Of a stretch of 64,000 bases of DNA, positions 8,608-16,877 are shown one piece after another. The notes under the pieces were generated by a model. The model did no database searches and was not told where the DNA came from. It was given only the letters and a program-made list of their open reading frames with translations. Within the stretch, counting starts at the first letter, position 1; the number at the start of each line of letters is the position of its first letter. The DNA comes from Candidatus Doudnabacteria bacterium. GTDB taxonomy: Bacteria > Patescibacteriota > Doudnabacteria > UBA920. Location of the stretch: the NCBI GenBank assembly GCA_003151625.1, contig PLYC01000010.1:4283-68282 (forward strand). The letters are read 5' to 3'. Both the position numbers and the translations under genes were made by a program.

Positions 8608-8904
8608 TTATATCCCACTACCTTCGTTAAATTCTTGAACGTCAGTGGCTCCTAACTGCATCCAGATTCGCGTTATATCCGCGACGCTATTTATCCCCAG
8701 TTTTTTTCCAATGTTTAACCTGTGTGATTTTATGCCTTCAGGGCCCACCCTCAATATCTCTGCAATAGCTTCTCTTCCTTTACCGGCTGCTATCCATCTC
8801 ATTACTTGTTTTTCAAATGGAGTCAGTTCCTTAAAACCCTCTTCTTCGGTTTTAGAAACATACAAATCCGGCTTAACTTCTAAGTCCATTTTTACTCTAC
8901 CCAT
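8608..8904 (-). CDS. LuxR/GerE-family helix-turn-helix protein encoded between atpD and atpC
   Basis: LTPFEKQVMRWIAAGKGREAIAEILRVGPEGIKSHRLNIGKKLGINS matches the LuxR-type HTH. The track ORF begins at 8934 overlapping the atpD 3' end; the real start is probably the internal Met near 8904. Confidence 0.55.
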   Translation of the reverse strand: MGRVKMDLEVKPDLYVSKTEEEGFKELTPFEKQVMRWIAAGKGREAIAEILRVGPEGIKSHRLNIGKKLGINSVADITRIWMQLGATDVQEFNEGSGI

Positions 8905-8908
8905 AAAT

Positions 8909-10279
8909 TTATTTTTTAACTTGTTCAATTCCACCCTTCATATAAAATTCGCCCTCGGCTACGGAATCATACTCGCCATCCAAAATCATTTTAAACGCTT
9001 TTACTGTATCAGCGAGTTTAACAAATTCTCCTTTGCGGCCGGTGAAGACTTCGGCTACGGCAAAAGGTTGGGAAAGGAAGCGCTGGATTTTGCGGGCGCG
9101 TCCTACGGTAACCTTGTCTTCTTCCGGAAGTTCTTCCATACCTAATATGGCGATAATATCCTGAAGATCTTTATAGCGCTGCAATGTTTTTTGTACGCCG
9201 CGGGCGACGTTGTAGTGCTCAACGCCTACTATCAGCGGGTCTAAAATCGTTGAAGTGGAATCCAAAGGATCTACAGCCGGATAAATACCAAGTTCGGTTA
9301 ATGCGCGGGAAAGTACCACGGTAGAGTCCAAATGGGCAAAAGTTGTGGCCGGAGCAGGGTCGGTTAAGTCATCGGCAGGTACGTACACGGCCTGAACCGA
9401 GGTAATAGAACCGTCTTTTGTGGAGGTAATGCGTTCCTGTAATTCCCCCATTTCAGTGGCGAGTGTTGGCTGATATCCGACCGCGGATGGAATACGACCC
9501 AAAAGCGCGGATACTTCGCTGCCTGCTTGTGTGAACCGGAAAATGTTGTCTATAAACATCAGCACGTCCTGATGCTGTTCGTCGCGGAAGTATTCGGCCA
9601 TAGAAAGTCCGGACAAAGCTACACGGGCGCGGGCTCCCGGGGGTTCATTCATTTGCCCGAACACCATAGCCAGTTTTGGCAAAACGTTTGCGTCTTTCAT
9701 TTCGTGGTACAAATCGTTTCCTTCACGGGTTCTTTCCCCGACACCGGCGAATACCGAAACACCTCCGTGAGCCTTGGCAATGTTGTTAATCAACTCTTGA
9801 ATAATAACTGTTTTACCTACGCCGGCACCGCCGAACAACCCTACTTTACCGCCCTTTAAGATTGGGCAAATTAAATCTATAACTTTAATTCCGGTTTCCA
9901 GAATTTCGGTTTTGGTGTTTTGGTCGGTAAACTTTGGCGCCGGGCGGTGAATTGGGTATCTTTTGTCCGATGGCGGCGTTGGTTGGCCGTCTACAGCCTG
10001 CCCCAGCACGTTAAAAATGCGTCCCAGCGTCTCTTTTCCCACAGGTACGCTAATTAGAGCGCCTGTGTCTGTAACCTCTGTTCCGCGCTTTAAACCGTCG
10101 GTTGACGACATTGCAACCGTGCGAACGATGTTGCCCGGAAGTTGCTGCTGGACTTCCAGAGTCAGAGTATTTTTATCGCTGATAGCGACTTCCAGCGCAT
10201 TATAAATTGCCGGCAATACATCTTTAAAATGCACATCCACTACCGGCCCTATTATCTGACTGATTGTACCTTTGTTCAT
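8909..10279 (-). CDS. atpD: F1Fo ATP synthase beta subunit
   Basis: [17 protein letters not shown] Walker A, DELSEED-like region, 456 aa. Confidence 0.95.
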
Positions 10280-10299
10280 AATTAGATATAAATTAAATT

Positions 10300-10626
10300 T
10301 TAAGGTTTAAGACGTTTATTAAATATTTCCCTATATAATTGAACCAGCTCCTCGTAGGTTTGTTCAGTGGTGACCGTTTTTAATGAATGTTGGTGGTTAT
10401 AAATAGCCAACTCAACTTTAGCTTCGAGCACTTGCAATTCTTCCAAAAGCCCTAATTCCTCTTCTTCGGCATAACCTCCAGGGACAACATCTCCAATTTT
10501 TTCGTATCCTTGCTTGGAAATTTCAATTGATTGTCTTACAGTACGTAACAGTCCTTCCAATTTTGCAATCTGTTCACCCAGTTCCTTACCAGGTTCACTG
10601 TCGTGTTGTCCTCGTTTTGTTGGCAT
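10300..10626 (-). CDS. Hypothetical coiled-coil protein inserted between atpG and atpD
   Basis: 108-aa ORF with protein-like composition (..[18 protein letters not shown]..) filling the atpG-atpD gap exactly. Confidence 0.4.
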
Positions 10627-10628
10627 AT

Positions 10629-11630
10629 TTACTCCAGCGCGATTTTGCCTGCTGTAATCTCAGCAAGCTCGGTCGTTATTTTGTTTTGCCTTAACTTATT
10701 GTAGGTCAAAGTCAAATCGCTAATAAGGTCCCCGGCAGCTTCGGTGGCGTTTTTCATCATAACCATTCGGGCGGATTGTTCGGAGGCTTCGCTTTCCAGG
10801 ATGGTTTGGTAGATTTGGGATTCTATAATGCGGGGCAGAAGGTGTTTTAGGACTTCGGCGGGATTTGGCTCAAATAAATAGTCTGCGGTTTTCAGTTCAG
10901 AGTCTTTAGTGGGGGCGGAATTACTTGCGAATGGCAACAGTTGTTTAACCATCGGTTTTTGGACCAAAGTAGAAACAAAACGGTTGTAAAAAATTAAAAC
11001 TTTTTGATATTTGCCGGAAGAATATAAATTTGTAATAAGTTCCGCTATTGGGAAAATATCTTCCGTGGTAATAGTGCGGTCAAATTTTTCAAAATCGGCC
11101 AACACTTCTTTGTGCGAACGTATCATTACGTCCCGCCCTTTGCGTCCGTAAGTGATGAAGTCGGCTTCAAGCCGATGGGCACCATCGGTCTTGGAATTGT
11201 CCGGCTCCGACGGTGCCCATCGGACTTCAGATTCAATAGTTTTTTGCACCAAATTAAGCAAATTGCTATTCAAACTCCCCACCATTCCCCTATTGGTCGT
11301 TAAAATTAAAACCGCGATTTTTGTGGCTTTGGGATAGGATGTCATAAGCTGTGTCATCCCGGGCAGTAGCATCCGAGAGCTGGGGTCCAGGTCGGCTGAT
11401 TCTTGCAAAACATCAACGGCGTCTTGGCCCGGCGTTGCAATAGCGGCGGTTGACCCGGCTTCTATATCCAAAATCAGCTCCCAAGCCAAACTGGCGTAAG
11501 TTCTGCTCCGCATAGTCGCGTCCTGGCTCTTGCGCATTTTGGCCGCGCTGACCATTTGCATAGCCCGCGTCACCTTGCGTGTGCCGCTAATGGACTTGAT
11601 TCGAGTTTTAAGTTCTTTAATTCCGGGCAT
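10629..11630 (-). CDS. atpG: F1Fo ATP synthase gamma subunit (longer than usual; contains an in-frame palindromic insert)
   Basis: N-terminus MPGIKELKTRIKSISGTRKVTRAMQMVSAAKMRKSQ. The C-terminus is a typical gamma helix. 333 aa versus ~290 typical. Confidence 0.85.
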   Translation of the reverse strand: MPGIKELKTRIKSISGTRKVTRAMQMVSAAKMRKSQDATMRSRTYASLAWELILDIEAGSTAAIATPGQDAVDVLQESADLDPSSRMLLPGMTQLMTSYPKATKIAVLILTTNRGMVGSLNSNLLNLVQKTIESEVRWAPSEPDNSKTDGAHRLEADFITYGRKGRDVMIRSHKEVLADFEKFDRTITTEDIFPIAELITNLYSSGKYQKVLIFYNRFVSTLVQKPMVKQLLPFASNSAPTKDSELKTADYLFEPNPAEVLKHLLPRIIESQIYQTILESEASEQSARMVMMKNATEAAGDLISDLTLTYNKLRQNKITTELAEITAGKIALE

Positions 11631-15502: not shown

Positions 15503-15668
15503 AGTGTTTTCCTTTTGTCACATTTGGTCGACAGTTTAAGTTTGGGTTTAATGTCGCCGAGTGTGAGAGTTAATTAATTGACACAAATGACAGGATTTAA
15601 ATGATTGACATTATTTAACCGCAGTTATTCCGTCAATTTTGTTCAATCTTGTCATTCTTGCCAATTCC

Positions 15669-16529
15669 CTAAATTGCTTCCACCTCGCTGACCTCAATTT
15701 CCTGATGGTTTTCTTCAACATGGCCGTGAATTTCCGATGTCGCTATGCTTAAGTATACCAAAGTAAGCATCGAAAACACGGTGGCCTGGACAATGCCCAC
15801 TATTAATTCCAGCAACATAAATGGAATTGGAATTAAAAACGCGCCATAGCCCGCAATTAAGGAAGCCAAAACAGTAAGCAGAACTTCGCCGGCAAAAATA
15901 TTGCCGAATAACCGCAAAGAAAGCGAAACCATTTTGGCGACTTCGGAAAAAACTTCTATAAGCCCGACAAAAAATTCAATAAAAGCCACCAAAATTTTAA
16001 TCGGGCTTAAGCTTTTAATTGCCTGATAAATATCGCCAAACTTAATGAACTTGTTGGCGTATTTAAAAAATCCGATGGTAAAAATCCCCAAAATGTGGCT
16101 GGCGACAACCGCAAATACGGCCATAGCCAAAGTTAAATTTAAGTCGGTATTGGCCGGCCGCAAAATCGGTAAAAATTCGCCGCCGCGATAAAGTCCAAAA
16201 CTGCCGGTGCCGGGAAGCAGGCCGACCCAGTTGGAAAATAAAATGAAAAAGAACATCCCGCCGACAATGGGCAAAAACTTCATGGTTTTTTTGCGGTCAT
16301 GGGTTACGCCGTCAATATAGCCTAAAACAAATTCTATGAGGTACTCAAAGAAGTTAACCAAGCCTTTGGGCGCGCCTGTCGCGTAATACTTCTTTGCGCT
16401 CCTATTCAAAAAGTAGGCAAACACCGCAAAAACGACCACGCCCAGTGTGGAGTTAATATAGGCGTTTGTAATCGGAAAAGATCCGATGTGGAATATAGGT
16501 TCTGCAGCTAACGGAGGGAGGGAAAGCAT
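15669..16529 (-). CDS. atpB: F1Fo ATP synthase a subunit
   Basis: LSLRLFGNIFAGEVLL, with the conserved Arg of the a subunit. Confidence 0.9.
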   Translation of the reverse strand: MLSLPPLAAEPIFHIGSFPITNAYINSTLGVVVFAVFAYFLNRSAKKYYATGAPKGLVNFFEYLIEFVLGYIDGVTHDRKKTMKFLPIVGGMFFFILFSNWVGLLPGTGSFGLYRGGEFLPILRPANTDLNLTLAMAVFAVVASHILGIFTIGFFKYANKFIKFGDIYQAIKSLSPIKILVAFIEFFVGLIEVFSEVAKMVSLSLRLFGNIFAGEVLLTVLASLIAGYGAFLIPIPFMLLELIVGIVQATVFSMLTLVYLSIATSEIHGHVEENHQEIEVSEVEAI

Positions 16530-16555
16530 TGAGAGATATTAGTTGATATTTTTGT

Positions 16556-16607
16556 CCAATAGGCACCATTGGCTTAGGAAATTCCGATGACCAATGGTGC
16601 CTATTGG
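16556..16607. promoter_or_regulatory. Perfect 17-bp inverted repeat with 18-nt spacer between atpZ-like and atpB
   Basis: ccaataggcaccattgg-N18-ccaatggtgcctattgg. Confidence 0.5.
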
Positions 16608-16619
16608 CTGATGACAAAA

Positions 16620-16877
16620 TCACTTCATCAAATCTTTTACTTCCTTAATCTTTTTAAAAATTAAGTACCAGCTTAAGCCCAAAGCGAGAAAAATTCCTAT
16701 TAAAACAAAAAATTTATGGTGATATTTGGCATCGAGCCATTCCCCACCGTAAATAAAAGCAAACAATGGGATAGCCAGGTACAGAGCAAAGTCCAGTCCA
16801 ATTCCGACTAATTGTGACCAAAGTTGGGCTTTTCGGGCTTTACTTTCTTGGCTTTCCTTATTTTCCTGGTTTTCCAT
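16620..16877 (-). CDS. AtpZ/AtpI-like small membrane protein preceding the atp operon
   Basis: 85 aa with two TM helices, immediately upstream of atpB. Confidence 0.45.
   Translation of the reverse strand: MENQENKESQESKARKAQLWSQLVGIGLDFALYLAIPLFAFIYGGEWLDAKYHHKFFVLIGIFLALGLSWYLIFKKIKEVKDLMK

Follow-up and report, generated by a model that had tools for sequence, protein, structure and literature searches.

The F1Fo ATP synthase operon on a 64,000-nucleotide stretch of DNA from a Candidatus Doudnabacteria bacterium (the window, by which we mean the whole 64-kb stretch) retains its canonical gene order, and its gene junctions have probably been colonised by promoter-less passenger genes and by palindromes resembling transposable elements of the miniature inverted-repeat type (MITEs), making the operon a recombination hot spot. 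The passengers would be of two kinds, namely small open reading frames (ORFs) on the strand of the operon (a GerE-type gene, orf108, orf95, orf90 and perhaps orf74) and palindromes, which lie in the atpI-atpB, atpE-atpF and atpA-atpG junctions and within atpG. Junction content is polymorphic among relatives, the small ORFs are co-oriented with the operon and carry a coding signal, divergence along the operon is mosaic, and the repeats are mobile.

Organization of the Operon

All eight F1Fo structural subunits and atpI are present on the minus strand (8150-16877) in the order atpI-B-E-F-H-A-G-D-C, identified by Pfam or tblastn for subunits a, c, b, delta, alpha, gamma, beta and epsilon and for ATPase_gene1. 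An initial annotation, made from the sequence alone, had already given the order atpB-E-F-H-A-G-D-C as intact, and we find the items that it listed where it placed them, with all genes on this strand. In the order of transcription the features are as follows (aa, amino acids; nt, nucleotides; MFE, minimum free energy, in kcal/mol).

16620-16877, minus: atpI-like small membrane protein (ATPase_gene1); PF09527, 5.8e-7, 29.9 bits against a cut-off of 26.6; 97.6% identical in the related locus L081
16556-16607, no strand assigned: hairpin repeat between atpI and atpB; perfect 17-nt arms, 18-nt loop; MFE -35.9, z -7.6
15669-16529, minus: atpB (subunit a); tblastn to relatives, PF00119 on the L081 ortholog
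15284-15502, minus: atpE (subunit c); identical protein in L081, annotated PF00137
15100-15283, no strand assigned: long palindromic MITE-like element filling the atpE-atpF spacer; MFE -94, z -8.2
14518-15081, minus: atpF (subunit b); comparison with relatives
14244-14516, minus: orf90, putative passenger gene at the atpF-atpH junction
13840-14247, minus: atpH (delta), short 135-aa form; Pfam OSCP 4.1e-24
13552-13839, minus: orf95, putative two-pass membrane passenger protein at the atpH-atpA junction
12024-13523, minus: atpA (alpha); comparison with relatives
11868-12023, no strand assigned: hairpin-rich repeat after atpA; MFE -54.8, z -4.7
11643-11867, minus: orf74, possible single-pass membrane peptide at the atpA-atpG junction; coding status equivocal
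10629-11630, minus: atpG (gamma), 333 aa, carrying palindromic repeats inserted in frame at 11172-11223 and 11355-11390
10300-10626, minus: orf108, putative helical orphan passenger gene at the atpG-atpD junction
8909-10279, minus: atpD (beta); comparison with relatives
8608-8904 (98 aa; longest ORF 8608-8934), minus: stand-alone GerE/LuxR-type helix-turn-helix (HTH) protein at the atpD-atpC junction; Pfam GerE
8150-8602, minus: atpC (epsilon); Pfam ATP-synt_DE_N 4.5e-22, ATP-synt_DE 1.4e-7

The junction ORFs are packed stop-to-start against the atp genes, their starts lying 0-20 nt from the preceding stops. The start of orf90 is 1 nt past the atpF stop and its end overlaps the atpH start (ATGA), the ATG of orf95 directly abuts the atpH stop, orf108 begins 2 nt past the atpG stop, and 5 nt separate the end of the LuxR-type ORF from atpC. 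Terminator-like sites across the operon are in no excess over shuffled sequences. The extra ORF that had been reported for each junction is found at five of them, atpF-atpH, atpH-atpA, atpA-atpG, atpG-atpD and atpD-atpC, while atpI-atpB, atpB-atpE and atpE-atpF hold no credible ORF.

Junction Content Differs from That of a Close Relative

The nearest species representatives of the window organism are metagenome-assembled genomes (MAGs) from the Patescibacteria, or Candidate Phyla Radiation (CPR), and the closest reference is 'Ca. Doudnabacteria' L001 (L numbers label related loci), with an AtpA 80% identical to that of the window. The comparison set comprised about 45 related operons; 80 reference loci were searched by tblastn and 80 further loci came from an AtpG metagenome scan, and every genome compared is a MAG or a metagenome contig. 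In L081 subunit c is identical to that of the window and AtpA is 96% identical, and the content of five junctions differs between the two, as listed here.

atpF-atpH: window, orf90; L081, a palindrome of the atpE-atpF type
atpH-atpA: window, orf95; L081, an unrelated 97-aa ORF
atpA-atpG: window, hairpin repeat and orf74; L081, a 148-aa GxxExxY/PDDEXK_3 ORF
atpG-atpD: window, orf108; L081, an orf108 homolog split by a 1-nt deletion
atpD-atpC: window, LuxR-type gene; L081, a 133-aa GxxExxY ORF (cassette at L081 8410-8952)

A single 20-kb region served as the control for this variability. L164, which comes from the same metagenome as L081, is collinear with window positions 28448-48690 (20.2 kb) at 94.5-95.8% nucleotide identity, with only three small indels; with five junctions changed in L081, the atp operon is therefore far more variable than this neighbouring stretch. 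Divergence within the operon is itself uneven. Between the window and L081 the proportion of synonymous differences (pS) is 0.13-0.17 for atpI, atpB, atpE and atpH and 0.49-0.64 for atpF, atpA, atpG, atpD and atpC, and the flanks are 96-99% identical at the nucleotide level. A mosaic of this kind is the pattern that recombination tracts would be expected to leave.

Outside the operon, L081 also carries an 81-aa GIY-YIG ORF (11469-11714) between genes for tRNA-Met and tRNA-Asp, where the window has 8 nt (6139-6146).

Junction Occupancy across the Clade

For the wider survey we took relatives with at least 80% AtpA/AtpD identity as close and gaps of at least 180 nt as large. Large gaps occur in close relatives at 2 of 16 atpF-atpH junctions, 5 of 17 atpH-atpA, 13 of 27 atpA-atpG, 15 of 29 atpG-atpD and 8 of 18 atpD-atpC; the median gap in distant bacteria at the last four of these junctions is 29-65 nt. 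In 60 of 74 large gaps the longest ORF on the strand of the operon spans at least 60% of the length; the antisense strand does so in 14 of 74. Close relatives also provide empty junctions, such as atpG-atpD in L087 (58 nt), atpH-atpA in L085 (9 nt) and atpA-atpG in L084 (25 nt).

The occupants include GxxExxY (TIGR04256), four-helix-bundle/23S_rRNA_IVP, GerE, Sigma70_r4, cytidine deaminase, Bro-N, nucleoside deoxyribosyltransferase and GDSL-like esterase proteins, together with many orphans. They fall into two classes. The GxxExxY and four-helix-bundle genes are stem-enclosed, with terminal inverted repeats at z scores of 6-25 and, in MFE folds, stems of about 30-45 bp that enclose the entire ORF, whereas all others, including the five of the window, are 'naked' (z below 2). 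Searches of the window ORFs against the families typical of intervening sequences (IVSs), PF05635/TIGR02436 and PF13366/TIGR04256, gave no match; these families were found in relatives only. Stem-enclosed cassettes were seen at atpD-atpC in L081, L085, L086 and L146 and at atpA-atpG in L089, L104 and L113. Some junctions scored as empty, for example atpD-atpC in L002, hold a palindrome without an ORF, made up of similar short motifs, which may be a solo stem.

Individual arrangements recur in independent assemblies from different samples, the LuxR-type gene in the window, L082 and L088, and GxxExxY in L081, L085, L086 and L146. A search of the literature at hand returned no prior description of ORFs inside CPR atp operons, nor any relevant GxxExxY biology.

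Coding Signal of the Junction ORFs

Each junction ORF was examined by the length of open frame found in 5000 shuffled spacers and by a codon-usage log-likelihood score for which 30 long window genes served as the training set, with the six frames compared. Open frames of the same length arose in 4 of 5000 shuffles for the LuxR-type ORF, 2 for orf108, 8 for orf95 and 32 for orf90, and in each case the codon score was positive and the best of the six frames (+0.20 for orf108, +0.15 for orf95 and +0.12 for orf90). The scores of these four ORFs (0.12-0.20) fall within the range of the atp genes (0.12-0.30). For orf74 the corresponding figures are 78-457 of 5000 and -0.04, its frame being second-best. 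The earlier view that several of the small ORFs are genuine is thereby borne out for the LuxR-type ORF, orf108, orf95 and orf90, while orf74 stays equivocal. Two further ORFs that overlie palindromes, of 45 aa (atpA-atpG hairpin repeat) and 60 aa (atpE-atpF palindrome), have negative codon scores and were rejected as genes.

The ratio of nonsynonymous to synonymous rates (dN/dS) for orf108 against the L081 copy is 0.17-0.19, the L081 copy being split by the 1-nt deletion within a purine run, and among 1.84 billion representative proteins the only relatives of orf108 were the two L081 fragments. We considered a single family for all atpG-atpD junction ORFs and rejected it, as iterated profiles did not converge and orf108 matches the L081 copy only. 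A homolog of orf90 with 31% identity lies at the atpF-atpH junction of L085 (phmmer 4e-7); the gene is absent from L081 and most relatives (seen in 2 of 16) and has no match in Pfam, NCBIfam, PHROG or PADLOC. The coding status of orf95, which has two hydrophobic segments, rests on ORF statistics only: no homolog was found in a database of 5.8 billion proteins, from which orf95 itself is also absent, and the atpH-atpA junction in relatives holds unrelated ORFs or nothing. For orf74, with one hydrophobic segment, we found neither a homolog among the related loci nor a family match. None of the small window ORFs had a tblastn match in the 80 reference loci. PADLOC and PHROGs returned generic HTH matches for the LuxR-type protein and nothing meaningful for the others, and a defence-system or phage origin was rejected on this outcome.

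Absence from close relatives had been proposed as the mark of a spurious ORF. Four of the five ORFs are indeed absent from close relatives, and we read this as the behaviour of variable passengers and not as spuriousness.

The delta subunit (13840-14247), at 135 aa, covers only Pfam profile positions 65-172 and lacks about 45 residues of the N-terminal helical bundle. This short form is common to all CPR relatives, which align over the full query length (L001, for instance, over query 1-134); orf90, present in 2 of 16, was accordingly rejected as the missing N-terminal part. A 173-aa delta call in L081 is an artefact of inserts.

The LuxR-type Gene between atpD and atpC

A LuxR-type gene amid the F1 genes suggests, at face value, that expression of the ATP synthase is controlled by a signal, a reading that the evidence disfavours. 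The initial annotation was right that a transcription-factor-type gene in this place is unusual, and the ORF is real, matching Pfam GerE (PF00196) at 2.3e-12 (46.8 bits against a cut-off of 23.5). A profile search of the PDB returned 41 members of the family at 1e-3 or better, among them EsrB, StyR, SdiA, NarL and GerE. The AlphaFold2 (AF2) model, with a mean predicted local distance difference test score (pLDDT) of 81.7, has helices at residues 24-34, 39-46, 50-64 and 69-89, and consists of the four-helix GerE domain with one N-terminal helix; Foldseek aligned it with StyR, FixJ, NarL, LiaR and GerE at root mean square deviations of 1.1-1.8 Å and template modelling (TM) scores, normalised to the target, of up to 0.90, with StyR, FixJ, NarL and GerE at 1.1-1.5 Å. 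Only residues ~10-89 of the 93-98 aa match, always to the C-terminal part of longer regulators, and profile searches found no autoinducer-binding or phospho-receiver domain. The product is a putative dimeric DNA-binding protein without a sensor domain, and not an ATP synthase subunit.

The protein had been described as 108 aa long; the GerE-fold gene stands, and the product is most likely shorter, at 98 or 93 aa. The true start is most likely ATG 8904 (98 aa) or ATG 8889 (93 aa, the form in public databases) and not GTG 8934, and the fact that every homolog starts 4 nt after the atpD stop favours ATG 8904. A word-indexed search of 5.8 billion proteins returned three hits, namely the 93-aa form itself and two at 52-54% identity, and contigs encoding orf108 or either form of the LuxR-type protein (108 or 93 aa) were looked up by exact sequence, with no record returned. 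The C-terminal tail (8608-8650; ADITRIWMQLG...F-x-x-G-x-G-I) is invariant in the three database homologs and predicted to be disordered, and might be a short partner-binding motif.

The same junction holds a homolog in L082, between an atpD product 97% identical to that of the window and an atpC product 88% identical, and a 50%-identical copy in L088; in L156 it holds a 184-aa ORF with tandem GerE domains. A further homolog (52% identical, L083) has a peroxiredoxin gene on one side and a membrane-protein gene on the other, and is not part of an atp operon. The dN/dS of the gene is 0.13-0.28, indicating purifying selection. Across the clade the atpD-atpC junction is occupied by the LuxR-type gene (the window and two to three relatives) or by a stem-enclosed cassette with a nuclease-like GxxExxY gene (L081, L085, L086 and L146), and is empty in others, and on a tree of atpD and atpC the LuxR-bearing and GxxExxY-bearing relatives are interleaved. 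In part of the clade the LuxR-type gene appears to have resided at this junction for a long time. Divergence of the GxxExxY genes is below that of their flanks (pS 0.40-0.53 against 0.64-0.73; proportion of nonsynonymous differences, pN, 0.03-0.04 against 0.11-0.19 for atpC), a hint that these cassettes may have spread more recently.

Palindromes and Hairpin Repeats

The palindromes fold far beyond shuffled controls, at -94 kcal/mol (z -8.2) for atpE-atpF, -54.8 (z -4.7) for atpA-atpG and -35.9 (z -7.6) for atpI-atpB, and they match no Rfam family at the gathering threshold or at E values up to 1. The GC palindrome reported for the atpE-atpF junction is present, at 15100-15283. Each palindrome family has one to three copies within the window, and related copies are scattered through the operons of relatives. 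The atpE-atpF type recurs in L088 (atpE-atpF and atpF-atpH), in L081 (atpF-atpH and after atpC) and, within atpG, in L086 and L090. The atpA-atpG hairpin repeat has 90% identical copies at the same junction in L088 and L092, and partial copies inside atpG of L081, of L113 and of the window itself (11355-11390). The atpI-atpB repeat family has a second copy in frame in atpG (11172-11223); another, less similar, lies at 57254-57292, the search giving 7 matches where 0.52 were expected. The family also occurs inside atpG, atpD and atpA of L085, where the inserts in atpA and atpD are at L085 6337-6388 and 9407-9459.

An alignment of 18 gamma subunits defined three hypervariable insertion sites, and the in-frame inserts of the window atpG add about 17 residues (11172-11223) and about 33 residues (11355-11390) at two of these three loops. 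L081 and L086 have inserts at the same N-terminal site of atpD as L085.

The initial annotation had put forward the inverted repeat at 16556-16607, said to lie upstream of atpB, as a candidate LuxR box. The perfect 17-nt arms are there, in a position between atpI and atpB and not upstream of the operon. The repeat belongs to a dispersed family and is therefore not a credible LuxR-specific site; as a LuxR operator it was rejected, because a copy is in frame in atpG and because a 96.7% identical copy is kept in L081, whose atpD-atpC junction is without the LuxR gene. A spaced 17+18+17 hairpin is also unlike the contiguous box of about 20 bp of the lux type.

Other Features of the Window

A group I intron (RF00028, 66.9 bits, 6526-6728, minus strand) interrupts a tRNA-Leu(CAA)-like gene at 6503-6745, and ARAGORN calls tRNA-Leu(CAA) only once about 240 nt are removed; group I introns have been reported in tRNA genes of Patescibacteria (PMC13011429), a pattern that this one fits. 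Between a murD-like gene and an amidohydrolase gene (33286-34421) lie small ORFs of 81, 209 and 90 aa, which are kept in L164, where the ortholog of the 209-aa ORF has a faint AbiEii match. The spacer between a thioredoxin gene and its neighbour holds a 172-nt palindrome at 38703-38874 (MFE -80 kcal/mol, z -9.6) that is missing from L164, the relative with 95% identity, and whose sequence is unrelated to the palindromes of the atp junctions.

Origin of the Junction Content

Under the reading that we favour, the passengers would share the transcription and translation of the atp polycistron and would ride on an operon that is essential, highly expressed and highly conserved. Lineages would exchange them by homologous recombination or gene conversion, with the conserved atp genes serving as homology arms, and the nuclease-type cassettes of relatives (GxxExxY PD-(D/E)XK and GIY-YIG) might promote the exchange through homing-like cleavage. 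Passengers would persist because imprecise deletion would be lethal. Hairpins such as the one right after atpE may secondarily serve mRNA processing or stability.

Several observations weigh against this reading. Profile searches found no nuclease, transposase or integrase domain in the five window junction ORFs, which also lack flanking inverted repeats (z -0.8 to 1.8) and target-site duplications, so that mobility is deduced only from polymorphism and mosaicism. The mosaic could itself in part be a chimeric metagenome assembly. The pS of the LuxR-type gene (0.65) equals that of its flanks (0.64-0.69), and the gene therefore looks like a vertically inherited resident, probably under relaxed constraint; together with a position kept in three to four lineages, this fits a functional vertical resident, for which a role tied to the operon would still be possible. 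Many of the atpG-atpD ORFs of relatives are, weakly, similar to one another, a hint that this junction may hold an old, fast-evolving positional gene instead of repeated insertions, although the window orf108 is not among them.

Two rival explanations would give the ORFs a function in the operon. That the LuxR-type protein is a dedicated regulator, coupling atp transcription to a signal through the palindrome at 16556-16607, gains from its genuine GerE fold and purifying selection, from the homologs in L082 and L088 and the GerE ORF in L156 at the same junction, from a start coupled to the atpD stop in every homolog and from the invariant F-x-x-G-x-G-I tail. We nevertheless judge it unlikely, given a protein with no ligand-binding or receiver domain, equally close relatives with a GxxExxY cassette or an empty junction in its place, the L083 homolog outside any atp operon, and a proposed site that is a 17+18+17 hairpin repeat found also in coding sequence and in L081; the suggestion in the initial annotation that the gene ties ATP synthase expression to a signal is disfavoured on the same grounds. 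The small ORFs could alternatively be lineage-specific accessory subunits, assembly factors or inhibitors (orf95, orf74 and orf108), by analogy with zeta, IF1 and AtpTheta. Their translational coupling to neighbouring subunits is tight, delta is truncated throughout the clade, small membrane ORFs recur at atpA-atpG (window, L088 and L119) and atpH-atpA (window and L096), and in 15 of 29 close relatives atpG-atpD is filled by weakly similar helical ORFs of 86-197 aa. Occupants of one junction, however, bear no relation to one another in relatives with 90-96% identical F1 proteins, the junctions noted above in L087, L085 and L084 are empty, orf108 has no relative beyond its own lineage among the 1.84 billion representatives, and orf90 occurs in 2 of 16 relatives where the short delta is universal; this explanation too seems improbable to us.

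The ORFs might instead be chance open frames, and the mosaic and variable content an artefact of metagenome assembly. The equivocal orf74, the spurious 45- and 60-aa palindrome ORFs and the metagenomic origin of every compared genome are in keeping with this, as is orf95, which is missing from the protein database and so was not called by the source annotation. Shuffle p values of 0.0004-0.006 for four ORFs, codon scores like those of the atp genes, dN/dS below 0.3 for the LuxR-type gene and orf108, the confident known fold of the former, the recurrence of each arrangement in independent assemblies and the 60 of 74 gaps filled by same-strand ORFs make it very improbable. Passenger colonisation of the junctions thus remains our preferred account.

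A bolder form of this account, which we offer tentatively and think rather doubtful, is that small promoter-less gene cassettes form a pool in this Patescibacteria clade, with the junctions of conserved essential operons as their landing pads. IVS-type cassettes would home into junctions and leave the polycistronic mRNA by cleavage at their stems, in the way that RNase III removes rRNA IVSs. The naked ORFs, among them the LuxR-type gene, orf108, orf95 and orf90, would either have resided at junctions for longer or be new genes that arose or were captured there, and gene conversion by way of the neighbouring atp genes would pass them from one species to another. If true, ultra-small genomes would have an unrecognised means of carrying and trading accessory genes, and the same repeats would also reshape, in frame, surface loops of the gamma, alpha and beta subunits.

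On either form of the account, an essential and conserved operon of an ultra-small bacterium would be a hot spot for small passenger genes and hairpin repeats, including in-frame insertion into subunits of a catalytic complex. If general, this bears on how CPR bacteria acquire and express genes with minimal regulation, on the origin of orphan genes and on the persistence of selfish elements in reduced genomes. It also carries a warning for annotation: here function cannot be read off from operon context, and automated start calls, like 'extended' neighbours, are artefacts of inserts.

Comparison with Known Systems

In phage T4, free-standing endonuclease genes occupy intergenic positions amid conserved genes, have no promoter, run in the direction of the adjacent genes and leave tracts of co-conversion (PMC2988022). 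The atp junctions resemble the 'intronless homing' of the seg and mob genes in their small intergenic ORFs, present or absent among relatives and joined to an existing polycistronic message, and the co-conversion tracts are akin to the pS mosaic between the window and L081. Relatives carry GxxExxY PD-(D/E)XK cassettes and the GIY-YIG ORF between two tRNA genes (compare segB). The mosaic and the low pS of the GxxExxY genes are compatible with homing without proving it. The window's five ORFs differ in having no GIY-YIG, HNH, PD-(D/E)XK or LAGLIDADG nuclease domain, and the host is a bacterial chromosome and not a phage; homing is here a candidate by analogy.

The IVSs of 23S rRNA offer a second parallel, since the 23S_rRNA_IVP/TIGR02436 and TIGR04256 families occur in the atp junctions of relatives, enclosed by stems of about 30-45 bp. 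These cassettes sit in the junctions of an mRNA operon and not in an rRNA helix, and the window ORFs have neither the IVS families nor flanking stems.

The palindromes are comparable to Rickettsia palindromic elements and to MITEs such as the Correia, repetitive extragenic palindromic (REP) and enterobacterial repetitive intergenic consensus (ERIC) elements, with strong folding, locations in operon spacers and strain-variable sites (PMC10969869). In-frame insertion into coding sequence, a hallmark of the Rickettsia elements, is seen in atpG of the window and in atpA and atpD of L085. They differ in being unrelated to any Rfam family and in having no defined terminal inverted repeat with a target-site duplication. 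RNase III cleaves Correia elements, which are co-transcribed (PMC10969869), so that a role of the atp hairpins in processing or stability is plausible.

The LuxR-type protein is close to GerE of Bacillus subtilis and to other stand-alone domains of the LuxR-FixJ-NarL type in its similar size, four-helix HTH fold and Pfam GerE match, and differs from them by its extra N-terminal helix, its invariant disordered C-terminal tail, the tiny size of its family and its location inside an atp operon.

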